The translations under genes were made by a program, and so were the position numbers. Positions 4,946 through 36,009 of a DNA stretch of 54,434 bases are shown here, one piece after another (position 1 is the first letter of the stretch; each line of letters begins with the position of its first letter). The notes under the pieces were generated by a model. It was given only the letters and a program-made list of their open reading frames with translations. It was not told where the DNA came from and made no database searches. Location of the stretch: positions 1-54,434 of the forward strand of contig JBDRJD010000044.1 of the NCBI GenBank assembly GCA_043815245.1, given 5' to 3'. Source of the DNA: an archaeon. Its GTDB lineage: Archaea; Nanobdellota; Nanobdellia; Pacearchaeales; GW2011-AR1.

Positions 4946-6280
4946 ATGGGAAGAGAAAATGTGATTGTTGTTGGAAGTGGTGGAAGGGAGCATACACTTG
5001 CTGATTTATTAAAAGGAGAGGGCAGAATGATTTTTGGAGCGCCGGGCAATCCTGGTTTTGTTTCTGATAGACCCCAAAATGTAGGGATTGATGGCACTAA
5101 ACCAGAGAATTTTCAAGCTTTATATGATTTTGCAGTTAGTAATAATGTTGGGATGATTGTTGTAGGTCCTGAAGGTCCGCTTTGTGACGGGCTAGTTAAT
5201 TTTATTAATTCTAAAGGTGATGAAAGAGTTAAAGTATTTGGGCCTACTTCTCAGGCTGCAATGTTAGAAGCTGATAAGTTTCATTCTTATAGAATAAATG
5301 ATGGACTTGGAATTCCGCAAGCAAGATCAATTATCTGTGAAAAGGTTGAGCAGTTTCCTAGGAGGGCCTTAGATGCGATTGATGCATTAGTAAATGAGCA
5401 TGGTATTGTTCTTAAAGATAGAGGATTGACTGGGGGTAAGGGGGTTAGTGTGTATGATTCTGCAGAGAAAGCAAGGAAAGAGCTATTAAGTCATGCTTAT
5501 ACTTATAGCGGGGATATTTTAGTTGCTGAAAGATTGAAGGGGCAGGAGTATTCTGTTTTTTGCATTGCTGATGGTGAAAATGTGAAGCCAATTTTAATTT
5601 CTTTTCAAGATCATAAGCCTTTGCTTGATGGAGATAAAGGTCCGAATACTGGGGGTATGGGGGCTTATGGGCCTGCTCCGATTGCGGATAGAGGAAGAGT
5701 GGCAAGAGTTTGTGGAAAGATTGCTGGGCCAATAGTCAGGAATACTGGTTTTCAAGGATTCTTATATCTTGGAATGATGTTGGATGAAAGGGATGGGGTG
5801 GACAAAGTTATTGAGTATAATGTTAGATTTGGAGATCCTGAAGCTCAGCCTCTTGGTATGTTGCTGAAGAGGGGGTTATATGAACCATTAAGATTGGCTT
5901 TAGAAGGTAGATTAGATGAAGCTGAGTTTGAATTTAAACCAGGAGCTGCGGTTTGTGTTGTATTGGCTACTCCTGGTTATCCCACTTCAGAGTATAAGGC
6001 AAATACAAAAAGAATTATTCATGGTTTAGAAGCAGTTGCTGAAATGGAAAATGTAAAAGCTTATCATGCTGGAACTGGATTTGATGCAGAATTAAATATT
6101 ATTAATACTGGGGGCCGGGTTTTAGGGATTACGGCCTATGGTGAAGGAGAAGATGTTTTTGAAAGTATAAAAACTGCACAGAAATTAGCTTATGTTGCTG
6201 CTGGAAAGATTATGTTTGGAGATTTGACTCCCCACTACAGATCAGATATTGGGGATAAGGCATTTTTATTAGTTACTTAA
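4946..6280 (+). CDS. purD: Phosphoribosylamine-glycine ligase
   Basis: VGSGGREH, VVGPEGPL, GGKGV, QDHKPLLDGDKGPNTGGMGAY, EYNVRFGDPEAQ and GGRVL. Confidence 0.95.
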   Translation: MGRENVIVVGSGGREHTLADLLKGEGRMIFGAPGNPGFVSDRPQNVGIDGTKPENFQALYDFAVSNNVGMIVVGPEGPLCDGLVNFINSKGDERVKVFGPTSQAAMLEADKFHSYRINDGLGIPQARSIICEKVEQFPRRALDAIDALVNEHGIVLKDRGLTGGKGVSVYDSAEKARKELLSHAYTYSGDILVAERLKGQEYSVFCIADGENVKPILISFQDHKPLLDGDKGPNTGGMGAYGPAPIADRGRVARVCGKIAGPIVRNTGFQGFLYLGMMLDERDGVDKVIEYNVRFGDPEAQPLGMLLKRGLYEPLRLALEGRLDEAEFEFKPGAAVCVVLATPGYPTSEYKANTKRIIHGLEAVAEMENVKAYHAGTGFDAELNIINTGGRVLGITAYGEGEDVFESIKTAQKLAYVAAGKIMFGDLTPHYRSDIGDKAFLLVT

Positions 6281-12474: not shown

Positions 12475-12583
12475 ATCCTAATATAGAGTTTGATACGTTT
12501 TTAAAAGTTACTTGGTTTACTTTTTGGGGATTAGAAAGCTTTTTAAATGATCTTGGGATTGCATTATTGAGGTATTTAATAAA

Positions 12584-12811
12584 ATGGAAGAAGAAAAAGA
12601 AGAAACAGAAGAAGAAACAGAAGAAGAAACAGAAGAAGAATCTGAAGATTCTGATAGCGACTCTGAAGACAAAGCTGAAGAAGAATCTGAAGATTCTGAT
12701 AGCGACTCTGAAGACAAAGCTGAAGAAGAATCTGAAGATTCTGATAGCGACTCTGAAGACAAAGCTGAAGACGAGAAGGTAGATGAAGAAATCGCTGAAG
12801 ACGAAGAGTAA
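12584..12811 (+). CDS. Extremely acidic low-complexity repeat protein (75 aa)
   Basis: GAGGT SD-like motif upstream and T-rich terminator downstream; the sequence is mostly E/D/S. Confidence 0.65.
   Translation: MEEEKEETEEETEEETEEESEDSDSDSEDKAEEESEDSDSDSEDKAEEESEDSDSDSEDKAEDEKVDEEIAEDEE
12599..12766 (+). repeat. Tandem repeats: 3 x 12 bp (EETE), then 3 x 45 bp (EEESEDSDSDSEDKA, 12632-12766)
   Basis: Exact in-frame tandem copies visible in the sequence. Confidence 0.9.
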
Positions 12812-25700: not shown

Positions 25701-27107
25701 TGTGATGGGATAGACCAAGATTGTGATGGAAGCGATGATGAAGGTACTGATGTTGATGGTGATGGGTTCAAAGTTGAGGGAGGATTATGTGGATTAGTTG
25801 ACTGTGATGATGGAAATGAATTTGTAAATCCTTCTGCAACAGAAATTTGTGACGGTATTGATAATGATTGCAATGCCTCTACTGGAGATGGAAGTGGAGA
25901 AGCTGCACCTTTGAATTCTTTACAAGATGGTGTTTGCTCTGGAAGTTTACAGAGTTGTACCGGAAGCTGGACAGATGATTATTTGGGCGTTGCTAATTAT
26001 GAACTACTTGAAGTAAGTTGCGTTGATGTTTTAGATAATGATTGTGATGGGGAGGCAGATAATAATGATAGCGATTGCCCTATTGTGCTTCCACCAGGTG
26101 CGTTTAGTTTGTTTATTGAAGCTGAGGACTTTACTTTGAATTCTTCAATATTTAATGTTAATGCATCTAGTGGAGCATCTAGAGGAGATTATATTTATGC
26201 TGATGGGGACTTAAGTGAAAAAGTCAACCCAACTGAAGATGGAAATTATTCTGTGAGCATCCCTGCAGACGGTGTTTATGCACTTTGGGCTAGGTTGTAC
26301 GCTACAAATGAAAGCAATGATGCAATTTATATTGGTTTTGATGGAACTTATAATAGAACTTTTCCTAGTAATTGGAGTGTTTTCCAGTGGGTGTTTGTAG
26401 CTAGCTTTTCTTTAACTGAGGGAAGTCATGAAATTTTTATTAGTTATTCTGAGAATTTATCTGGAGTCGATGCATTGTTTATTACAGAGAATTTATCTTA
26501 TATACCTACTGATGATATTATTGAGTATTGTCCAAATACTATTTGTGATACAGCTAGAGGAGAGAGTTGTAGTACTTGTCCTGCTGATTGTGGCGTTTGC
26601 TCTGATGATGATAGTGATGATGATAGTGGTGGCGGAGGGGGCGGCGGAGGTGGGGGTGGCTTCCCTCCTGTAACTGGAAATGAGACTAATACAACTCAAC
26701 CAGCTCAGAATGTTACCTTGCCAGAAGGTCTAGAATGTCAGCCTGGAGCTTGTAGTTCAGAGTTGCAAATGTACTGTTCAGATGATGGACTGTGGCATGA
26801 TGAGCTGTATTGTGATAATTGTGAAGATGGAATTTGTGAAGAAGAAGTTCCTAAAGATTATAATATTCAGATATTAATTGGGGTTATTGTAGGAATCTTA
26901 GTCTTAATTGTGGCAATAAGTATTGTGTTGATTAAAGCAAAAAAGCCTAAAGTTAAATTAAGTTCTAGTAAGTATGAGGACACATTAAGGCCGTATGTAA
27001 AGAAGGCTGTAGAAAAGGGAATGAAAAAGGCAGATATTAGAAAGCAGTTAATTGATAAAAAGTGGCCAAAAGAGATTGTGGATAAAGTTCTTAGAGATGT
27101 GAGGTAA
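22749..27107 (+). CDS. Large membrane-anchored surface protein: beta-helix module, Cys/Asp-rich Ca-binding-like repeats, CBM-like domain, poly-Gly linker and C-terminal TM
   Basis: MNKRG plus a hydrophobic signal; CTVPYDNMDVYGDTTLCPG module; D.D.DG..DCDD..NPSATEIC repeats; FIEAEDF domain; TM near the C-terminus. Confidence 0.8.
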   Translation: MNKRGKNLLLVSVVIAVFLVFLVAFSLAIGTDVDEGTVVNITVEGVNCSGNMIYFNYSEIDLTGANDSINPQPLGLPTSAIFTGNKTVVEWTAQWFDDSDGDDGNNNPDLQFNASCQDDSILSNIIQINPSSSSCTVPYDNMDVYGDTTLCPGSYYLNDSDANGIIRVRNGSVTLTCAGTHIYGDADIPAGSMGIVMGTSDLTYLSDITVKGCNVSNYYYGIRANGPPFPSRTIYNLVLRNNTLNNNHYEIYLRNVVDGLIENNSLNGPGIQYDAGFAFLNVNTTTVKNNILTNTHFVIFSPSYNNLILDNLFQNFNGAATSTVNPGCNGDRIVNNTFRNTWGINIEYPLNTVIEGNFVEGSSYNCIATANPSFLTSSISILNNDLKDCGTSGISINFVNNTLVSGNNITGCNLGIWGDRSFNLKILGNNFLRNRNGGSPKAIRLARCGGTIIQGNNITDEIESIVVEDSSNMSILNNNIYSSLSSSYGIFYDTSGESLIQGNNIQLTSSGYGGIWLHPGSLGCNNNVMKNNYISGAGFGVYIWLSNNNTIEDNVIDSCFASFSDGTGINVETSSNNTFVRNNVTKNVAGIKLLYTSEDNSITDSVVCNNSLSYDVVASGSSLNNSGSDNYCQNTLNWSDNGALALNLGCDNLCYPIDCDFDNDGYDAANATCLGTDCDDDEFFTNPSATEICSDVIDNNCNNESDYDEVGGLHGDLNCPVQVLGISTSNLNPIENTNIQVNCTANPGDVNSIDVDVGGSLCSFDLWDGNIASFTCNVGLAGIKDVTCSVNHLKSYQAGVNQSTTLNVIASSCSGLTEGSCNFNPSCDWCPGCSGNQSNLIGSDACVDTGTCNYECSLTFGCSAQCDLTLGGCSDTICEDYCVGEDLYLRDDVVNDCQLGGCTCEENACLTGSQTSCGSTNCNALIHLVGSCQNPCLTQAGDDVCAGSCTPSCSCEVGWWDINGLPVDGCEYACSISNGGVEILCDGIDQDCDGSDDEGTDVDGDGFKVEGGLCGLVDCDDGNEFVNPSATEICDGIDNDCNASTGDGSGEAAPLNSLQDGVCSGSLQSCTGSWTDDYLGVANYELLEVSCVDVLDNDCDGEADNNDSDCPIVLPPGAFSLFIEAEDFTLNSSIFNVNASSGASRGDYIYADGDLSEKVNPTEDGNYSVSIPADGVYALWARLYATNESNDAIYIGFDGTYNRTFPSNWSVFQWVFVASFSLTEGSHEIFISYSENLSGVDALFITENLSYIPTDDIIEYCPNTICDTARGESCSTCPADCGVCSDDDSDDDSGGGGGGGGGGGFPPVTGNETNTTQPAQNVTLPEGLECQPGACSSELQMYCSDDGLWHDELYCDNCEDGICEEEVPKDYNIQILIGVIVGILVLIVAISIVLIKAKKPKVKLSSSKYEDTLRPYVKKAVEKGMKKADIRKQLIDKKWPKEIVDKVLRDVR

Positions 27108-27191
27108 TGGGGTTCAGGAAAAAATGGGAACATTTAGAAATTATTGAGCACTAACTGTCTCTTTGTTAAGAAAGGGAAGATCATAGCAAAG

Positions 27192-27199
27192 TTTATAAA
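27192..27199 (+). promoter_or_regulatory. TATA box of the rpl7ae operon
   Basis: TTTATAAA preceded by a purine-rich BRE-like GCAAAG. Confidence 0.6.
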
Positions 27200-27220
27200 G
27201 CTATTTTTTTATTCTTTCAT

Positions 27221-27329
27221 ATGTCAGAAATACTTTGTGAAAAACTCCATCTTTTGGGATGTTGAGAGGTATTTCTGTGCATCCTAAAGTTTTAACAAAC
27301 TGAATATCTTACTTCAGAAACTTTTTGAT
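27221..27329 (+). mobile_element. AT-bounded double-hairpin repeat element, copy 1
   Basis: ATGTCAGAAATACT...GGTATTTCTGTGCATCCTAAAGTTT...AAACTTTTTGAT; blocks shared with the copies at 28917 and 34406. Confidence 0.7.
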
Positions 27330-27350
27330 CCAATGATTTAATAGGAGGAT
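27328..27350 (+). promoter_or_regulatory. Kink-turn/K-loop overlapping the SD of rpl7ae (putative L7Ae autoregulatory site)
   Basis: ATCC-AAT-GA-TTTAATAG-GA-GGAT: 4-bp C-stem, 3-nt bulge and tandem GA/AG pairs; contains GGAGG. Confidence 0.7.
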
Positions 27351-27353
27351 AAA

Positions 27354-27647
27354 ATGACTGATTTTTATTCTTTAGTAGAAAAAGCAAGAAAAACCGGAAA
27401 AGTTGAAAAAGGCATAAATGAAGTGACAAAAGCTATAGAGAGAGGTACGGCAAAATTAGTTGTTGTTGCTAAGGATGTTGAACCTAAAGAGGTTATCCAG
27501 CATATCCCGATTTTATGTAAAGAGAAGGGCATAGAGTGTGGAGAAGTTGATAGTAAGGAGAAATTAGGGATTGTTGTTGGGATTAAGGTGCCTTGTAGCA
27601 GTGTAGCAGTTATTTCTGGTGATATTGGCGAAACTAAAAAGAAATAA
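27354..27647 (+). CDS. rpl7ae: 50S ribosomal protein L7Ae
   Basis: [32 protein letters not shown]...HIP.LC.EK. Confidence 0.95.
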
Positions 27648-27655
27648 TTTTTAAG

Positions 27656-27949
27656 ATGGGAAGTAATAAACGTACTGTAAAACAGGGTAAAGCTGAAGCA
27701 ATGAAGGGTGGTGATAAGTATACTGCTGCGGCTGTACCGGCTTCTGTTGAAGAGATAATTGGGAGAACTGGTTTTAGAGGCGAGATTACTCAAGTGAAGT
27801 GTAGACTGCTTGATGGCAGGGATAAAGGTAAGGTTATGAGAAGGAATGTTAAGGGGCCTATAAGGCTTAAGGATCTAATTCTGCTAAGGGAGACGAATAT
27901 TGAAGCTAGAAGGATTAAAAGTAAGGTTACTAAGGGGGCTTTTACTTAA
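27656..27949 (+). CDS. rps28e: 30S ribosomal protein S28e with N- and C-terminal extensions
   Basis: [35 protein letters not shown]...LRET..EARRI. Confidence 0.95.
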
Positions 27950-27950
27950 A

Positions 27951-28211
27951 ATGAGTATTAGCATCCATCCTGTTGATCAGATGAATGAAGAATTAGTTAG
28001 TAGGATTGAAACACTATTGACTGAAAATTCTTTTGCTGAACCAGAGGCTGTGAAGGTATCTAATTTAAGGGAGAGTCAAGTTGATTATTTGAGAGGTTTG
28101 TTAGAGGAGAAAGGGTATGATGTGGAGGTAGCTGCTTCAATTGTTGTAGATAATACCCATGTTGGAATTCATGATACTACTTACGTTGCGCATATCAGGA
28201 GGAAAGAATAA
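27951..28211 (+). CDS. Hypothetical protein inserted in the ribosomal operon
   Basis: ATG at 27951, 1 bp after the rps28e stop. Confidence 0.65.
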   Translation: MSISIHPVDQMNEELVSRIETLLTENSFAEPEAVKVSNLRESQVDYLRGLLEEKGYDVEVAASIVVDNTHVGIHDTTYVAHIRRKE

Positions 28212-28212
28212 A

Positions 28213-28599
28213 ATGACAAATTATGCTAGGTTTTATAGTAATACCTTGCCTGGAAAAAGAAGTGCTAGGACTTTTAATAATACTAATCAAAAAGGTCAGC
28301 TTATTGAATGTGTTCGTGATGATAATCTAGGTGTAAGGTTAGAGGATGTTGAGGGCGATGTTGTGAGATTGCAAGTTAATACTCGTGCTGTTGATTGGTA
28401 TAAAAGGGGGGAAGGATTTTCATCACCTAGAGATTATGTTAGTCACGTAGAGACTTGTTTAGGTGAGCATGGATTTTTCTCTGAGGGTGTTGAAATTCAA
28501 CCAGGAGAGAATGGGGTGTTTATTATCCAAGCTAAAAGAGGCCAGGGAATGAGATTATCTGAAAGATTAAGAACTAAAGGGGAAACTCAACCATGGTAA
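28213..28599 (+). CDS. Hypothetical protein inserted in the ribosomal operon
   Basis: ATG at 28213, 1 bp after the previous stop; overlaps the rpl24e start. Confidence 0.65.
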   Translation: MTNYARFYSNTLPGKRSARTFNNTNQKGQLIECVRDDNLGVRLEDVEGDVVRLQVNTRAVDWYKRGEGFSSPRDYVSHVETCLGEHGFFSEGVEIQPGENGVFIIQAKRGQGMRLSERLRTKGETQPW

Positions 28600-28778
28600 A
28601 ATGCACATTTTGTAAAAACGATTATGATGAGAATCATAAAGGAACTACTGTTGTAGATGTTTATGGCAAGGTAGCTCATTTTTGCTCTTCTAAATGCAGA
28701 AAAAATTCTGAGTTAGGTAGAGATGGAAGGAAGACTAATTGGGTGAGAAAAACCAAGAAGGAAAAAGAGAAAAAGTAA
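28593..28778 (+). CDS. rpl24e: 50S ribosomal protein L24e
   Basis: CTFC...G...V...G....FCSSKC.KN..LGR..RK.NW (TRASH domain). Confidence 0.92.
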   Translation: MVKCTFCKNDYDENHKGTTVVDVYGKVAHFCSSKCRKNSELGRDGRKTNWVRKTKKEKEKK

Positions 28779-28860
28779 AATATATTTTCTAATATATATT
28801 TTACATTATATATATTGGTAAGCGATTTAGGCCTTTATCGACGGTAAATTATCAGAAAGG

Positions 28861-28868
28861 TTTATAAA
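28861..28868 (+). promoter_or_regulatory. TATA box upstream of gyrB
   Basis: AGAAAGG-TTTATAAA. Confidence 0.6.
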
Positions 28869-28916
28869 GCTAGGTGTTTTTTAATAGGTAAGAAGTAGCT
28901 GAAGACTACTCTTTTT

Positions 28917-28985
28917 ATGTTAGAAATGCTAAGAGGCATTTCTGAGCATCCTAAAGTTCCGAAAGGAATTGGGGAACTTTTTGAT
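28917..28985 (+). mobile_element. AT-bounded double-hairpin repeat element, copy 2 (minimal form)
   Basis: ATGTTAGAAATGCT-AAGA-GGCATTTCTGAGCATCCTAAAGTTCC...GGAACTTTTTGAT. Confidence 0.7.
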
Positions 28986-29033
28986 CCAGCTAAATTAAAA
29001 AATCGTTATGATTGTTAGTGGAAATTATCTATA

Positions 29034-30917
29034 ATGGCAGCAGAGAATAAAAAATATGATGCAAGTGACATAAGCGTACTTGAAGGTCTAGAAGGAGTGA
29101 GGAAAAGGCCTGCGATGTATATTGGTAGCACTGGAAAAGAAGGCCTGCATCATTTAGTTTATGAGGCTGTGGATAACTCTGTTGATGAGTGTCTTGCTGG
29201 GATATGCACTAATATTAAGATTACAATCAGAAAAGATGGCAGTGTAGTTGTAGAGGATAATGGGAGAGGGATTCCTGTTGATATTCATCCTAAGTTTAAG
29301 GTACCTGCTGTAGAATTGGTTCTTTCTAAGCTTCATGCTGGTGGAAAGTTTGATAAGAAGGCTTATATGATTTCTGGAGGGTTGCATGGGGTGGGAATCA
29401 GTGTGGTTTCTGCTTTATCCAAAAAGTTTATTGTCGAAGTCAGAAAAGATGGTAAAGTACACAGTCAGGAGTTTTCAAGAGGTAAGAAAAAAAGTAATTT
29501 AAAAGTTATAGGTAAAACAGAAGAAACTGGAACAACGGTTACTTTTTGGCCTGATGATGAAATTTTTTCTATACTTAGCTTTGACTTTAATACACTTGCA
29601 ACCAGATTTAGAGAGATTGCATTTTTAAATGCTGGATTAAAGATTACTTTAAAAGATGAAACAAAAGATAAAAAAGAAGATTTCCAGTATCAGGGCGGGC
29701 TTGTTGAATTTGTTAAGTGGGTGAATAAGAATAAAGAAGCTCTTCACAAACCAATTTACTTTCAAAAGAAAGCTGATTCCGTGGTAGTTGATGTTTCTAT
29801 ACAGTATAATTCTAGCTATCAGGAAAATATTTTTGGGTTTGTTAATACAATTAATACTGTTGAGGGTGGGACGCATATTGTAGGATTTAAAACTGCCTTG
29901 ACTAGAGTAATTAATGATTATGCAAAGAAGAAAGGTATAATTAAATCTGGGAATCTTACAGGTGATGATGTTAGAGAGGGGCTTACTGCTATTGTAAGTG
30001 TTAAGATTCCTGAACCGCAGTTTGAAGGACAGACAAAAACTAAACTGGGAAATTCTGAAGTAAAGGGATATTTAGACTCAATTACTTCTTTGGCTTTATC
30101 TGAGTTTTTTGAGGAAAATCCGACAATAGCTAGGAAGATTGCTTTAAAGGCAGGTGATGCTGCCAAGGCCAGAGATGCGGCAAAAAAAGCTAAAGATCTT
30201 GTTAGGAGGAAAAGTGCATTTGGTTTATCTGGACTGCCTGGAAAGCTTGCAGATTGCTCAAAAAAGAAGGCTGATGATACTGAGTTATATATTGTAGAGG
30301 GAGAATCTGCTGCTGGTTCCTCTAAAATGGCAAGAAATAAGGAATTCCAGGCTATTTTGCCACTAAAGGGAAAAATCTTAAATGTTGAAAAATCAAACCC
30401 TGCAAAGGTTTTTGGAAATGAGGAAATAAGTAATTTAATTACTGCTATTGGAACAGGTGTTGGAGAGCAGTTTGATTTGACTAAGATTAGATATAATAAA
30501 ATTATAATTATGACAGATGCGGATGTTGATGGACAGCATATTAAGACTTTGCTTTTAACTTTCTTTTTTAGATTTATGCCTAAGATAATTGAGTCTGGTA
30601 ATGTGTATGTTGCTGTTCCGCCTTTATTTAAAGTGAGGAAGAAAAAAGACCATTATGTTTATTCAGAGTCAGCTTTGAAGAGAGTGTTAGATAAATTAGG
30701 AACTGCTAATGTTACTAGATTTAAAGGTCTTGGGGAGATGAACCCCCAGCAGTTATGGGACACTACTATGAACCCAAATTCTAGAACTTTAAAAAGAGTC
30801 AATATCGAGGATGCTGTTGAAGCTGACAGGATATTTAGTATTTTAATGGGAGACGATGTTGCTCCTAGGAAGCAGTTCATTATAGAGCATGCTCATGAGG
30901 CACTAGTGGATATTTAA
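29034..30917 (+). CDS. gyrB: DNA gyrase subunit B
   Basis: EGLEGVRKRPAMYIG, EAVDNSVDE, DNGRGIP, GGLHGVG, PGKLADC, VEGESA, PLKGKILNV, MTDADVDG and FKGLGEMN. Confidence 0.97.
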   Translation: MAAENKKYDASDISVLEGLEGVRKRPAMYIGSTGKEGLHHLVYEAVDNSVDECLAGICTNIKITIRKDGSVVVEDNGRGIPVDIHPKFKVPAVELVLSKLHAGGKFDKKAYMISGGLHGVGISVVSALSKKFIVEVRKDGKVHSQEFSRGKKKSNLKVIGKTEETGTTVTFWPDDEIFSILSFDFNTLATRFREIAFLNAGLKITLKDETKDKKEDFQYQGGLVEFVKWVNKNKEALHKPIYFQKKADSVVVDVSIQYNSSYQENIFGFVNTINTVEGGTHIVGFKTALTRVINDYAKKKGIIKSGNLTGDDVREGLTAIVSVKIPEPQFEGQTKTKLGNSEVKGYLDSITSLALSEFFEENPTIARKIALKAGDAAKARDAAKKAKDLVRRKSAFGLSGLPGKLADCSKKKADDTELYIVEGESAAGSSKMARNKEFQAILPLKGKILNVEKSNPAKVFGNEEISNLITAIGTGVGEQFDLTKIRYNKIIIMTDADVDGQHIKTLLLTFFFRFMPKIIESGNVYVAVPPLFKVRKKKDHYVYSESALKRVLDKLGTANVTRFKGLGEMNPQQLWDTTMNPNSRTLKRVNIEDAVEADRIFSILMGDDVAPRKQFIIEHAHEALVDI

Positions 30918-30918
30918 A

Positions 30919-31536
30919 ATGGTAAGTAAAACGATAAAAGCAATAATTTTTGATATGCAAGAAGTTATTTATAAAGGCAGTCTTGGAAAGGCTTTTGCCT
31001 GTAAATTATCTGATAAGTATAATATTCCTTTTGATAAAATACGCAAAGTTTATGCAGAAACATTTGACGGTTATATGACAGGAAAAGAGTCAGAACATGA
31101 TTTTCTTAAAAAATTTGTATCAAAGCTAGGAATAACCTTTAATTATAAATTATTATCTGGATTGTTTTTAAGTGCATTTGAGGAGGTTTGTTCCCCAGAT
31201 AAAGAGATTATTGATTTGATTAAAAATTTGCATGGCAAATATGATTTATTCATTGCTTCAGATCATTATAAAGAACCAATAGAATTTATGCACAATAAAT
31301 ACGATATTGGTAAGTACTTTAAGGGTATGCTTTTCTCTTATCAATTAGGGTATAGAAAGACTTCAGAAAGATTTTTTGACAAAATCCTTGAAAACTATGC
31401 TCCTGGAGAATGTGTGTTTATTGATGATACAGAAAGATATATAGATCTAGGTAACAAAATAGGATTTCACTCAATTTTATTTAAAAATAATAATCAGTTA
31501 ATCAGAGAACTAAATAAATTGGGCATAAAAAAATGA
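30919..31536 (+). CDS. HAD-superfamily hydrolase
   Basis: AIIFDM, IASD, G.RK and CVFIDD. Confidence 0.85.
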
Positions 31537-34040
31537 CACCTAAGAAATCAGAAGAAAACGGAATTGAAAAAGATATAGAAGCTGAAGCGAAGAAAGAAAT
31601 TCAGAAAGATAGCATTGATGTGAAAGGTAAGAAGATAATTGGGGCTGAGATTACCGAGGAGATGCAGAAAGCTTATATTGATTATGCCATGTCTGTTATT
31701 GTTTCTAGAGCTCTTCCAAGTGTTGAAGATGGGCTGAAACCTGTTCAAAGAAGGATTCTTTATTCTATGAACTTAATGGGGATTAAACCTGGGACACAGA
31801 CTAAGAAGAGTGCAAGAATAGTTGGCGATGTAATTGGTCGATTGCATCCTCATGGAGATTCAGCTGTTTATGATGCTTTAGTAAGAATGGCACAAGATTT
31901 CTCTTTAAGATATCCTCTGATATATGGGCAGGGAAATTTTGGTAGTCTGGACGGAGATCCTCCTGCTGCATATCGTTATACTGAAGCAAGATTAATGCCA
32001 ATTTCCATGGAGTTACTGGAGGATATTGAGAAAGATACGGTGAAATTGCTTCCTAATTTTGATAATTCTTTGAAAGAGCCTGAGACTCTTCCTGCTAAAC
32101 TGCCTCTGCTGCTTTTGAATGGAGCTACTGGAATTGCTGTAGGGATGGCTACAAATATCCCCCCACATAATTTAACTGAGATTTGCGATGCAATTATCAA
32201 ACTGATTGAAAAACCGGATGTTCAGATTGAGAAATTAATGGAAATTGTTCAAGCGCCTGATTTTCCTACAGGCGGATATGTTAGCGGGGACTTTGAAGAG
32301 CTGTATAAAAATGGGAAGGGGAGCATGACTATGAGGGGGAAGGCAGCTATTGAAGTATTGAAGAAAAAAGATGCGATTGTTATTACCGAGATTCCTTACA
32401 TGGTTAATAAGGCCACTTTAATTGAGGAGATTGCTAAGCTTGTTCAAATTAAGAAGCTTCCTGATGTTTCGGATTTAAGAGATGAGTCTTCTAAAGGTAA
32501 AGTGAGAATAGTTATTGAGTTAAGGAAGGGGGCTGATTCTAAATTTACATTAAATAGGTTATACAAGTTTACAAAACTACAGAGTAGGTTTGATGCTAAT
32601 ATGCTTGCTTTAGTTGGAGGCAAGCCTCAAGTTCTTGGTTTGAAAAAGATTCTTGAAGAATATATTAAGTATAGGAAAATTGTGGTTACAAGAAGGACTA
32701 AGTTTGAACTGAAGAAAGCAGAGGATAGATTAGAGATTGTTAAGGGATTGTTAATTGCTCTGAAAGATATTAATGAGGTGATTAGCACGATCAGAAAGTC
32801 CCCGAATACAACTGCTGCTTTGGAGAGTTTAATCAAGAGGTTTAAGCTAAGCAGAAGACAGGCCCAGGCTATTTTAGATATGAAGCTGTCTTCTTTAACA
32901 GCTTTAGAGCAGGATAAATTAAAGAAAGAAGAAAAAGATTTAGAGCAACTGATTAATGAGCTTCAGAAAATATTATCTTCAGATAGCGAGATTCTTAATG
33001 TTATCAGAAAGGAAGTTTTAGAATTAAAGAGAAAGTATGGTGATACGAGGAAGACTTATGTGCTGCAGCGAGTTAAAGAGTTAAGTGAAAAGGATTTAGT
33101 GCAGAAGAAAGATGTGGTTGTTACTATTACTGATAAAGGTTATTGCAAGAGAATTGATTTAAAGACTTATAAGGAGCAGAAGAGAGGTGGAAGGGGTGTT
33201 ATAGGGAGTGATTTGGCTACAGGGGATTTTGTTAAGCAACTAATAACTTGTTCAACCCATGACTATTTGTTATTGTTTACTTCTAAGGGAAAAGTATACT
33301 GGATGAAAGCTTATCAGCTGCCTGCTGCAGAGAGATATTCAAAAGGAAAGGCTTTGATTAATCTTGTAAATTTGAAAGATGAAACAATTCAGAGTGTTAT
33401 TCCAGTGAGTAAATTTGAGGATTTTGTAATTTTAGTTACTAAGAGGGGAGTTATTAAGAAGATGAAACTTGAAGACTTTTCAAATCCAAGAAGCACCGGA
33501 GTGAAGGCTATCAATCTTCCTGCTGATGGGAGCGATGATTTGAATGATGTTAAGGTGATTAAGGAAGGTGAGGAGATATTACTTATTTCCAAGGGGGGGC
33601 AGGCTATTAGGTTTAATAGCAAGGAAGTTAGGGCCATGGGAAGAGCTTCTTATGGTGTTACTGGAATTAAGCTTGGAAAAGGAGATGCAGTTGTAAGCTC
33701 TGAAGTACTGCCTAGTGAGAAATCAAAAGAAACAATCTTAACTATAACTGAAAAGGGATATGGTAAAAGATCTGCTGTAGGAGACTATAGGTTGACAGGA
33801 AGGGCCGGAAAAGGGGTGATAAACATTAAAGTTGGAGATAGAAATGGGCCTGTGATTACTACTGCTTGTGTAAATGATAGTGACTCTGCGATTGTTACTA
33901 CAGCCAAAGGAATGGTTATTAGGACTCCTGTAAAGAACTTGAGAGTTATGGGGAGAGCTACTCAAGGAGTTAGGATAGTTAAGTTGCAGCAAGGAGATAG
34001 AGTCACTGATTTAGTTAAGGTTCAGGAAGCTGCTCCGTAA
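31533..34040 (+). CDS. gyrA: DNA gyrase subunit A
   Basis: [33 protein letters not shown] (catalytic Tyr), GyrA-box QKRGGRG and beta-pinwheel repeats. Confidence 0.97.
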
Positions 34041-34381
34041 ATTACGCTTAGAATTATTATTTCTACTAATCCAAAGAAAAAGTATAAATTGAGTATAGCT
34101 TGGTAGTCTTTTAATAATATTGCGAGGTTAATTAGTAAGGCGAGCAAGGCAAAGAAGATTCCTATCTTGAGAGATTCTTTTAATCTGTTTTCTGAGCTGG
34201 ATTTTTTAAAGTAAAAGTGATTTGCTATTAAGATAAGTATGGCTAAGCTTGAGTAGGCTAAGCCGTAGTAGATAAGTCCGCTTATCACTCCTTGTATAAA
34301 ATAAGGAATAAGGAAGGAGTTAAATAGGGTGAATAAGATTGTGCCTATTATTCCGATTATTAAACCTCTTTTCCAATTCAT
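34022..34381 (-). CDS. 4-TM membrane protein, paralog of the upstream gene
   Basis: Hydrophobic; N.KR...IG, YF, KE.L..G and KDY.A shared with 34492..34881. Confidence 0.7.
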
Positions 34382-34405
34382 TTTTATGCCTATTTTTTCT
34401 TTATT

Positions 34406-34524
34406 ATGTCAGAAATGCTAAGCGAAAACCACATCCTTTAGGATGTGGATGAGCATTTCTGAGCATCCTAAAGTTTCACAAACCACACCTTTTAAGGTGT
34501 GGTAACACTCAGAAACTTTTTGAT
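34406..34524 (+). mobile_element. AT-bounded double-hairpin repeat element, copy 3 (inserted in the 3' end of a gene)
   Basis: ATGTCAGAAATGCT...AGCATTTCTGAGCATCCTAAAGTTTC...GAAACTTTTTGAT with inner hairpins CCACATCC-TTTA-GGATGTGG and ACCACACCTT-TT-AAGGTGTGGT. Confidence 0.75.
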
Positions 34525-34881
34525 ACCTATTAGAGTCACAGTAATTATGCCTAGCAAGATTCCTATCCATAAGTATAGGTCTCCGAAAAAAGCCGTGTAA
34601 TCTTTTACAAAAAGTGGCACAGTTATTATCAGGTCTAAGATAATCCCTGTCAGGGCCATTATTAATCCTAGTAAAAGCCCTTCTTTTGCTCCTGCCTTTA
34701 CTTTTCCTCTAAAATAAATTAAGGAGGCAATTGCTACTAGAATTACTGAAAGTATATAGTGAACAATGTAGTAAAGAGTTCCTGATTCTAATCCTAATCC
34801 AAACATTAGGATTGATACTTCAAAGAATATCAGAACCCAAAACAATGCTCCAATAAGTACCGCTCTTTTTAAGTTTACCAT
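34492..34881 (-). CDS. 4-TM membrane protein; last residues encoded by the inserted element
   Basis: Hydrophobic 129 aa; the terminal KKFLSVTTP lies inside element copy 3. Confidence 0.75.
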   Translation of the reverse strand: MVNLKRAVLIGALFWVLIFFEVSILMFGLGLESGTLYYIVHYILSVILVAIASLIYFRGKVKAGAKEGLLLGLIMALTGIILDLIITVPLFVKDYTAFFGDLYLWIGILLGIITVTLIGIKKFLSVTTP

Positions 34882-34905
34882 CTTAACTTGAAGTAAAGCT
34901 AGTTT

Positions 34906-36009
34906 TTAAATTTTCTTAGCAATCCCTATATCTGCATTTACCTCTATTAGATCATTATCTTTGAAAACCTCGGTAGCATACTTTGTGCCTACAATACATG
35001 GAATTCCAAATTCGCGTGAAATTACCGCTGCGTGGGACATCATTCCCCCCTCATCAGTCACAATTGCAGCTGCTTTTTTAATAGCTGTCATTAAATCAGG
35101 ACCTGTTGTATCTGACACTAGGATGTCCCCTTTTTCCATTTTATTGAGATATTTTTCTGGAGTTTGGGAGGTGGGGATAATTTTGACTCTTCCTTTTACT
35201 ACTCCTTTGCATGCAGAGGTTCCAATTACCTGGTTTTTTGGTATGTCTTTGTCCAATAGCCTAATTTTTTTATAAGCTTCACCCCCAGAAATTATGTTTA
35301 GGTTGTTTTTGTCAAAGGTGATATATGAATATACTTGCCTTTCAGAAACATCTTTAACTTCTTTTCCTAATAGCAGCCTTGTTATCTCTTCAACAGTCAT
35401 TGAGTGGGCGTCTACTCTCTTTGTCCTTTTGATTGATTCTTGTAATGACTGGATAAACAAAGAATTCTCTCCCAAGGCTACCTCTGTAATCATCTCTCTA
35501 AACTTTAGCTTTAAATGCTGCATATTAATCAGATAGTCGGCAAGTTTTCTATATTCTGGAGGCCAGGTAGTTAAATCCGCCTCTCCTGAAAGCACTTCAT
35601 CAAATGAGTGTTTATCCTCAATATATTCCTGAACTACTTTTTCAATTTTTGCAAAATAAATAAACTCAGTTTCTTTGTATGTATTAAAGAAATCTGAAAA
35701 GAGAAGCTTAAATTCTATTAGAAATGTTATGAAATTTTTGTTATCAAGTTCTTTTATTTTAATTTTCTTGATTTTTTTTATTTTCTCTAGAAAAATCGGG
35801 TATTTTGATTCTTGTTCCCTGTACTTGTCTTCTGAAAGGGCAAATTCATAACCTGCTTGAGCTATTTTGCGGAGATTTTCCTCAGACATGAGAAATTCCC
35901 ACTTACCATTTTTGATTGTTACAATGGGATAAAATGTACTGTATGCTGGAACAAGCATATCAGTCATAAAAACATTAGATTCAGGGAGTTTGAAGATTAA
36001 TTCATACAT
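34906..36009 (-). CDS. Protein with a C-terminal PEP-utilising phospho-His (swivelling) domain
   Basis: GTSACKG.VKG.VKI, GDILV..TT.P and TDEGGMMSHAAVISREFGIPCIVGT. Confidence 0.88.
   Translation of the reverse strand: MYELIFKLPESNVFMTDMLVPAYSTFYPIVTIKNGKWEFLMSEENLRKIAQAGYEFALSEDKYREQESKYPIFLEKIKKIKKIKIKELDNKNFITFLIEFKLLFSDFFNTYKETEFIYFAKIEKVVQEYIEDKHSFDEVLSGEADLTTWPPEYRKLADYLINMQHLKLKFREMITEVALGENSLFIQSLQESIKRTKRVDAHSMTVEEITRLLLGKEVKDVSERQVYSYITFDKNNLNIISGGEAYKKIRLLDKDIPKNQVIGTSACKGVVKGRVKIIPTSQTPEKYLNKMEKGDILVSDTTGPDLMTAIKKAAAIVTDEGGMMSHAAVISREFGIPCIVGTKYATEVFKDNDLIEVNADIGIAKKI

Follow-up and report, generated by a model that had tools for sequence, protein, structure and literature searches.

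A hairpin-rich 117-nt insertion that replaces the tail of an archaeal membrane-protein gene is probably a transposase-free miniature transposon of the IS200/IS605 type

What is the hairpin-rich sequence that interrupts the end of a small membrane-protein gene in the archaeal DNA analyzed here, and how did it get there? The window is the whole 54,434-nt contig JBDRJD010000044.1 of assembly GCA_043815245.1, a pacearchaeal genome of 0.92 Mb that we refer to as G000; it contains three copies of the sequence, the third of which (copy 3) lies in the gene. We found that copy 3 is extra DNA, absent from the orthologous site of a genome of the same genus, and that the element family to which it belongs is multicopy and patchy among relatives. 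In our view copy 3 is probably a miniature transposon without a transposase of its own, of the IS200/IS605 "peel-and-paste" single-strand-DNA type, similar to the palindrome-associated transposable elements (PATEs) of haloarchaea.

The interrupted gene at present reads as a minus-strand open reading frame (ORF) of 129 amino acids (aa) (34492..34881), the last 10 codons and TAA stop of which come from copy 3. Its 3' end is CTA ATA GGT ATC AAA AAG TTT CTG AGT GTT ACC ACA CCT TAA, translated as ...LIGIKKFLSVTTP. Beyond the element, on the same strand, lies what the sequence, in-silico deletion and homolog tails identify as the displaced original end, (AT)A ATA AAG AAA AAA TAG, or I-I-K-K-K-stop (34390..34407). 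The original TAG occupies 34392-34390, and 8 nt on, at 34381, is the ATG of a downstream 119-aa paralog (34022..34381, minus strand). The coordinates given in an earlier note on this DNA were all verified on the sequence. We then deleted alternative intervals across copy 3 in silico and translated the product. Every 117-nt deletion that left one AT yielded a protein of 124 aa ending ...TLIGIIKKK, followed by TAG. A 119-nt deletion, which takes out both ATs, gave a 246-aa fusion with the paralog, and a 115-nt deletion, which takes out neither, gave 120 aa with the end LIGI.

Homologous proteins carry the same kind of tail. A search at E ≤ 0.01 found 139 proteins, of which the best 120 were listed, and all tail counts refer to the 119 non-query proteins among these listed matches. 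The motif G-x-[ILVMF]-[KR]-[KRNSEG] was present within the last 14 residues of 99 of them, its strict [KR][KR] form in 78; four residues followed the motif G in 56 and five in 17, and lengths were mostly 121-125 aa. Tails with KKF, FLSV or VTTP, the kind of insert-free ending that the earlier note had named as evidence to the contrary, occurred in 0/119. The excised reading (GIIKKK) fits the strict family pattern and the present reading (GIKKFLSVTTP) does not. The earlier claim that removal of the element gives a clean GIIKKK-stop end thus agrees with both the in-silico deletion and the homologs, and the restoration of a family-typical tail by a 117-nt removal is more than chance. The annotated 129-aa protein carries a foreign tail, the native gene having 124 aa, and the insertion has swapped the protein tail without destroying the protein.

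To see whether the site exists without the element, we turned to G001, a genome of the same genus. In matching position downstream of aIF2-gamma it has a gene for a 123-aa protein, 72% identical, that lacks the element and ends ...SLVGYLKK TAG. For the other two copies, window positions 26000-31000 were searched by BLAST against G001, which identified the syntenic contig C4, and each flank was then locally aligned separately. At the site of copy 2 (28917..28985, plus strand), a 69-nt short form that lies upstream of gyrB, the left flank aligns up to target position 180 and the right flank from 182 on, leaving 1 base in place of the 69 in G000. At the site of copy 1 (27221..27329, plus strand), which lies between a TTTATAAA box and the start of the L7Ae gene, the left flank ...TTTTTAT runs straight into CCAATGA, with which the right flank begins in G000; this junction was read by eye, the aligner itself having set the right flank farther downstream. 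A covariance model of the element (R1), built from nine aligned copies, found no match on G001 contig C4. Because the syntenic G001 sites are empty, copies 1-3 each represent an insertion with respect to G001, unless G001 has lost them precisely. These empty sites resolve the junctions only to 0-2 nt. At copy 3 an AT stands on both sides, one of them the host's, and a duplication looks the same there as a match to the element's own end. Two statements of the earlier note, that this is a real DNA insertion and that it is not a purely cis-regulatory leader, are borne out by these data: the boundaries are fixed up to the AT ambiguity, copies 1 and 2 are absent at G001 sites whose flanks abut within 0-2 nt, and other copies lie antisense in gene ends, as in the CysRS gene.

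The neighborhood of the membrane gene is only partly syntenic between the two genomes. The interval between aIF2-gamma and the membrane gene holds a 367-aa ORF in G000 (34906-36009, minus strand) and a 73-aa ORF in G001 (locus L044, 1646-1867); downstream of the membrane gene, the 119-aa paralog of G000 stands opposite a 382-aa membrane protein in G001.

On the plus strand, copy 3 reads ATGTCAGAAAT...GAGCATCC...CTTTTTGAT, the repeat beginning ATGTCAG and spanning 34406-34524, the interval also matched by R1 (85.9 bits, E 6e-17). Under the IS200/IS605-type reading, the element proper is the 117-nt stretch GTCAG...CTTTTTGAT at 34408..34524 (34406-34522 being an equivalent choice). It would be bounded on its left by the target-like flank motif ATTAT, of the NTTAT class (34403..34407), whose last two bases are the ambiguous AT, and would end in its own right-end motif TTGAT (34520..34524), which forms the last 5 nt of 39/47 copies. 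Between these ends are two hairpin arms. The left arm (34406..34466), with 14 pairs and 97.5% of its cells paired in nine copies, has a basal stem ATGTCAGAAATGCT / AGCATTTCTG-A-GCAT, in which one A is bulged, and, in the DNA fold, an enclosed apical hairpin CCACATCC-TTTA-GGATGTGG (34429-34448). The right arm (34470..34519), with 8 pairs, 4 of them changed on both sides, has a basal stem AAAGTTTC / GAAACTTT and an enclosed apical hairpin CCACACC-TTTTAA-GGTGTGG (34483-34502) that is unique in the window. The segment GAGCATCC between the arms (34461..34468) is invariant in the nine-copy alignment, and GCATCCTAAAGTT has 9 exact occurrences in the genome, compared with 0 for a reversed-pattern control. 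Judging by its bases, the AT and ATC of this center may be the complements of AT(GT) at the left end and of GAT at the right end.

Across the nine aligned copies the two arms comprise 22 pairs with 97.4% of cells paired and 5 pairs changed on both sides, values reached by 0/500 shuffles, and slid controls were 34-53% paired; the two arms are maintained by compensatory changes. Copy 3 folds as DNA with -28.1 kcal/mol on the plus strand and -28.3 kcal/mol on the other (z -7.8). Since the folding energies are equal, the choice of strand rests on the polarity of the TTTA loop, the G-T positions and the one-sided flank motif; loop polarity, flank motif and an invariant T-G pair point to the plus strand.

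We next compared the ends of the copies. R1 gave 49 matches in 37 sources, 48 of them distinct; one was cut by the end of its locus and was dropped, leaving 47 copies. The left flank has a T at position -1 in 39/48 and at position -2 in 35/48, and the element starts with A, T, G, T and C in 40, 46, 42, 39 and 40 of the 48, respectively. The copies matched by R1 end in ...TTTTTGAT. The left-junction 5-mer is NTTAT in 27/47 copies, a count that is blurred by about 7 rows that begin inside composite or tandem elements (GTGC.. starts), and the share of T at flank positions -6 to -1 is 65%, compared with 41% farther out and 41% downstream. The conserved NTTAT flank and TTGAT end are not accompanied by terminal inverted repeats (TIRs): the first 15 nt matched the reverse complement of the last 15 at a mean of 7.3 positions in the 47 copies and 6.1 in shuffles, with maxima of 10 and 11, respectively. 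The earlier note had described the insertion as occurring at an AT dinucleotide, which holds as a description and is probably too narrow, the T-rich NTTAT left flank and the TTGAT right end being longer. Given these two motifs, the shared AT is probably better read as the end of a target motif next to a similar element-end motif than as a duplication.

The landing site of copy 3 has the same character, its left flank in element orientation being TTTTTTCTTTATTAT, the antisense of the tail codons ATA ATA AAG AAA AAA. A second gene-end copy occupies the last codons of the CysRS gene (G000 contig C39, 18948-19006) in the orientation of copy 3. The occupied CysRS tail is ...GTKIKKFPE, the excised reading, made by eye, is ...GTKIKKSS, and relatives have ...GT[KR][IV]KK[IKL]; as a test of the element boundaries this copy does not discriminate, for both readings keep GTKIKK. 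The two insertions regenerate I-K-K in the same frame because the TTTTTGAT end resembles the T-rich target.

How widely is the element distributed? In G000, R1 found 23 matches at E ≤ 1 and 15 at E ≤ 0.01, to which our scripts add a copy lacking its center (contig C31, 17592-17706) and a probable fragment on C36. Among 41 genomes (G000 and 40 relatives), 9 carry the element, with 15, 16, 8, 21, 2, 28, 1, 42 and 3 copies, many of the matches sitting at contig ends, and the other 32 gave no R1 match. Copy 3 shares 95-96% identity with G000 copies on C18 and C31 and 90% with the best of those in G001. With copies in G032, a genome that belongs to a different family and has a CysRS tail of only 47% identity, it shares 84-89%. 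Copies are 56-283 nt long, all too short for a transposase, and occur in either orientation, in gene ends and also nested one in another. A 16-mer scan of species-representative genomes gave at least 125 loci, each of which was tested with R1. Among the matches listed, R1 confirmed 76/86 archaea-titled loci, all but one of which (75) bore the title Nanoarchaeota, Nanoarchaeia, Woesearchaeota, Pacearchaeota or "uncultured archaeon" and came from about 27 assemblies. It confirmed neither the Micrarchaeota-titled locus nor any of 39 bacteria-titled loci. In viral contigs there were 24 exact 16-mer matches, 0 of them confirmed by R1.

Several copies are remarkable in structure or setting. The 283-nt copy at C27:745-1027 in G000 has extra small hairpin modules in its center and right arm, and the right-arm hairpin of C6:17751-17895 is interrupted by a module shared with it. 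The loss of the center in C31:17592-17706 looks like recombination between the two apical hairpins. In G032, four copies lie antisense among ribosomal-protein and Cbf5-like genes (C10:14500-21593, locus L048), and a 90-nt copy in the same locus (4968-5057) lies in frame inside a 151-aa ORF. We considered integron-like cassette arrays for the G032 clusters of 4-6 copies and ruled them out, the intervening genes being ribosomal-protein and Cbf5-type housekeeping genes and the copies antisense intergenic insertions.

G000 has one intact Y1_Tnp gene, encoding a Y1 HUH transposase (TnpA) of 135 aa (97.8 bits) on the 2.5-kb contig C33, and 0 matches to TnpB (PF07282) at 85.7% completeness. The gene is part of a complete IS200-type insertion sequence (IS; C33:1-700, locus L013) with a T-rich left flank and TTCAT and the right end ..TCATTCAT. 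From metagenomes we collected 80 loci whose TnpA is 72-95% identical to the C33 protein, and we aligned 20 that had full flanks. Their ends are conserved and sharply defined, with a T-rich left flank followed by TTCAT|TACATCC and a right end ..TTTCAT|, and two-tier hairpins with TTTA or TTTTAA loops stand at both. The target motif and the element-end motif of this IS are nearly identical, which produces an apparent short direct repeat of the same kind as the AT at copy 3. The flanks of the relatives' IS200 genes likewise contain hairpins, in which GAAAC is followed by a GC-rich 8-bp stem strand, a TTTA loop and the returning strand. When 20 such flanks were compared with the 48 element copies by blastn-short, the right-end hairpin of an IS200 in G020 matched, in like orientation, the right arm of a G032 copy at 23/23 nt (46.1 bits, E 2e-9); among 400 shuffled control queries the highest score was 34.2 bits. 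By this match, one arm of the family is homologous to the right-end hairpin of a related archaeon's IS200. Among the 41 genomes, Y1 genes occur in 12, namely in 5/9 that bear the element and 7/32 that do not, counts that ignore kinship. A truncated Y1 ORF 45 nt from an element in G032 (C7, divergent) was judged uninformative as a parent IS, and the genome-wide count of TTTA-loop hairpins proved too noisy as a marker, with 9/31 falling in listed elements or the IS200.

We propose that a Y1 (HUH) TnpA provided in trans would bind both arms on one DNA strand, cut past the flanking ..TTAT and past the element's own ..TTGAT, and insert the 117-nt strand at another T-rich ..TTAT site, leaving the target unduplicated. 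In the case of copy 3, that site would have been the antisense strand of the lysine-rich tail codons. Because the right end of the element resembles the target, I-K-K still opens the new reading and the change is confined to the final residues (IIKKK to IKKFLSVTTP), which would make the insertion nearly harmless, and precise excision would return GIIKKK-stop.

A number of observations weigh against this proposal. No Y1 gene was seen in 4 of the 9 element-bearing genomes, which are 80-91% complete. No autonomous IS with the family's ends emerged, R1 giving E values of 0.03 or above on 12 Y1 loci from relatives and, on the 80 metagenome TnpA loci, one weak match (E 9e-4) that was not placed as an end. 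A second IS200 right end, from G006, matched another copy at 20/21 nt, a score (34.2 bits) that only equals the best shuffle. The left hairpin of the element starts at its first bases and the local IS200 has about 9 nt before its hairpin, so that the guide geometry would have to differ. Folding energy shows no strand asymmetry, the plus strand being more stable in only 15/47 copies. The AT on both sides of copy 3 could be a true 2-bp target duplication, a reading that the data do not separate from the one given above. No tested feature accounts for the invariant GAGCATCC center. Finally, the occupied site is present in public DNA contigs, one of which (231 nt) covers 34376-34606 with no difference and others of which cross each junction; an empty-site joint or circle junction was found in none of the contigs of four DNA runs (2-4x contig depth).

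Some of the same points would favor mobility by a different mechanism, one that likewise leaves an identical dinucleotide at either side of the element. The candidates are a DDE transposase with a 2-bp (AT) duplication, a rolling-circle IS91/Helitron-like enzyme acting between A and T, or a dinucleotide-core recombinase such as IS110 with its bridge RNA or the IS607 serine recombinase. An AT indeed stands at both ends, the frame is restored only by deletions that keep one AT, and a matching autonomous IS200 was missing among the relatives' 12 and the 80 metagenome loci; G000 also has one IS110-type (DEDD) transposase gene (C6:252-680, locus L062, with a 333-aa open frame). We nevertheless regard this explanation as unlikely. 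A DDE-type miniature inverted-repeat transposable element (MITE) would need TIRs, conservation in the flank is limited to one side and extends beyond a dinucleotide, and a family arm is homologous to an IS200 right end. The transposase searches bearing on this alternative covered IS110 and serine recombinases, Y2/IS91 and Helitron-type Rep genes lying outside them. IS110 was rejected as mobilizer, its genes occurring in 2/41 genomes, only one of which has the element; serine recombinases were rejected as well, showing no relation to copy number and no strong matches in the copy-rich genomes G000, G001, G012, G019 and G032.

Could the copies instead be structured small RNA genes or leader RNAs spread by duplication, with the hairpins, GAGCATCC and UUGAU serving an RNA function and mobility being secondary? 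The combination of covarying stems, unpaired segments that do not vary and apical extensions that do is a classic signature of functional RNA, and nucleotide conservation is high across host families. The G-U positions favor the plus strand, which ends in a T5 run, and copies 1 and 2 lie downstream of strong TTTATAAA boxes. Against this reading, all three window copies are missing at orthologous sites within the genus, copy number varies from 0 to 42 among relatives, copies occur in both orientations, within gene ends and nested, and many of them, by eye, have no promoter-like box at a suitable distance. Nor do the copies match any Rfam family. A scan of 27000-35000 with Rfam 15 at E ≤ 10 produced 4 matches; copies 2 and 3 had none, and the only one nearby, to SNORA68 on the minus strand (27139-27270), runs opposite to copy 1 and overlaps its first 50 nt together with the promoter region; at 32.3 bits (E 0.0044) it is below the gathering score of 43 and was judged to be chance. 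Hammerhead, C/D-box, H/ACA and K-turn motifs, compared by eye, did not fit. An RNA function as the primary explanation therefore seems quite improbable to us.

Doubtful, in our estimate, is also a pair of more speculative readings: that the family is a self-guided mini-transposon whose center GAGCATCC serves as a single internal DNA guide pairing with AT-GT at the left terminus and with GAT at the right one, or that it is a functional, perhaps circularizing, small RNA that spreads as DNA. If the element were self-guided, any resident Y1 TnpA could move it, which would explain the lack of a parent IS with the same ends and the 84-89% identity across archaeal families. Intron-like removal of the element from RNA, with the GIIKKK protein still being made, is very unlikely: a 117-nt removal would be in frame and restore the tail, yet the mRNA junction flanks UAAUAGGUAU and AAUAAAGAAA are not complementary and, as the earlier note had also found, show no bulge-helix-bulge motif (by eye, with no dedicated tool), the element is antisense in the membrane gene and sense or intergenic elsewhere, G001 lacks it already in the DNA, and no rescue of the protein is needed because the altered tail keeps I-K-K.

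Returning to the IS200/IS605-type miniature transposon, how does it compare with known systems? IS608 and ISDra2 are insertion sequences of the IS200/IS605 family, and a local example is the IS200 on C33. Like our family, this has two-tier hairpins with TTTA/TTTTAA loops, in its case on the tnpA-sense strand, and a T-rich left flank ..CAT and right end ..TTCAT that form an apparent direct repeat, as the AT does in our family. It differs in basal stems, end motifs (TTCAT versus TTAT/TTGAT) and internal sequence, and the family model has no match on its ends. REPINs, which consist of two inverted repetitive extragenic palindromic (REP) sequences forming one long hairpin, are hairpin repeats with a single-copy Y1 transposase, the REP-associated tyrosine transposase (RAYT). 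The association of hairpin repeats with a single-copy Y1 transposase is shared, whereas the arms of our family have the same polarity on one strand, with distinct end motifs outside them.

The family resembles the PATEs, defined in Haloquadratum walsbyi and other haloarchaea by Dyall-Smith et al. (2011; PMC3119063). According to the sections of that paper concerned with these elements, PATEs are non-coding by length and lack TIRs, have palindromes near both ends akin to the ones in IS605-type transposons, a short 5' targeting oligonucleotide and a terminal oligonucleotide, both conserved, and are present or absent in a strain-specific manner, all of which resembles our family. Their terminal-only forms, as short as 52 bp, compare with our shortest copies of 56-69 nt; the repeat-mediated loss of a PATE's core between palindromes has its counterpart in the centerless C31:17592-17706, and the small repeats inserted in PATE palindromes in the extra hairpins in the arms of the copies on C27 and C6 and a second one on C31 (C31b). 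Our family differs in host (DPANN Nanoarchaeota/Woesearchaeota/Pacearchaeota rather than haloarchaea) and in sequence, in having its left hairpin at the very end of the element and an invariant 8-nt center joining the arms, and in that no parent IS with its ends was identified among the relatives' 12 and the 80 metagenome Y1/TnpA loci. The IS200/IS605 elements of Geobacillus stearothermophilus (Meers et al. 2023; PMC10055086) share several features with our family as far as the relevant passages of that study describe them. They have stem-loops in both ends, T-rich adjacent target motifs TTTAT and TTCAT (NTTAT in our family) and an element-encoded right-end motif TTCAC (TTGAT here); gene-less PATE-like elements are also reported. 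Likenesses to them that for our family would follow from the proposal are the absence of target duplication, the scarless donor joints and the mobilization in trans of copies lacking tnpA. Unlike them, our element contains no tnpA, tnpB or omega-RNA, and the TnpA acting on it is only a candidate.

With MITEs, at least as characterized in the portions of the 2024 prokaryote census (PMC11602168) that bear on detection, the family shares small size, high copy number, lack of coding capacity and a mostly intergenic or gene-end location; MITEs are, in contrast, defined by TIRs and usually have target duplications. Because it has no TIR, the family would be missed by the TIR-based detection described there. 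Our literature search found no description of this element family in DPANN archaea, and the word "PATE" does not occur in a 2026 archaeal IS survey, which profiles insertion sequences.

This kind of element is therefore not new, and the family is a further case of gene-less selfish jumping DNA. It would mean that genomes smaller than 1 Mb still hold tens of gene-less transposon copies of the single-strand type, which are invisible to TIR-based MITE finders and transposase-based IS finders alike. Lysine-rich tail codons read in antisense give the T-rich target motif, which the element end mimics. Insertions at 3' ends therefore preserve an I-K-K tail, which would explain why gene-end insertions are tolerated. 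In practice, empty sites should be checked before short hairpin repeats in DPANN genomes are called RNA genes or leaders, and the family could serve as a strain marker for groundwater populations.

A few further observations concern single loci. In G001, two equal-scoring inverted copies (C22:25-139 and 26698-26812) lie at both ends of a 26.8-kb contig, which reflects either an assembly break at the repeats or a composite structure. A copy in G000 (C4:10802-10874) was seen by eye about 35 nt from a tRNA-like gene on the opposite strand. Elsewhere in the window, at 12566-12810, a tandem array with periods of 9-12 nt and 45 nt codes for an acidic stretch rich in Glu, Asp and Ser.

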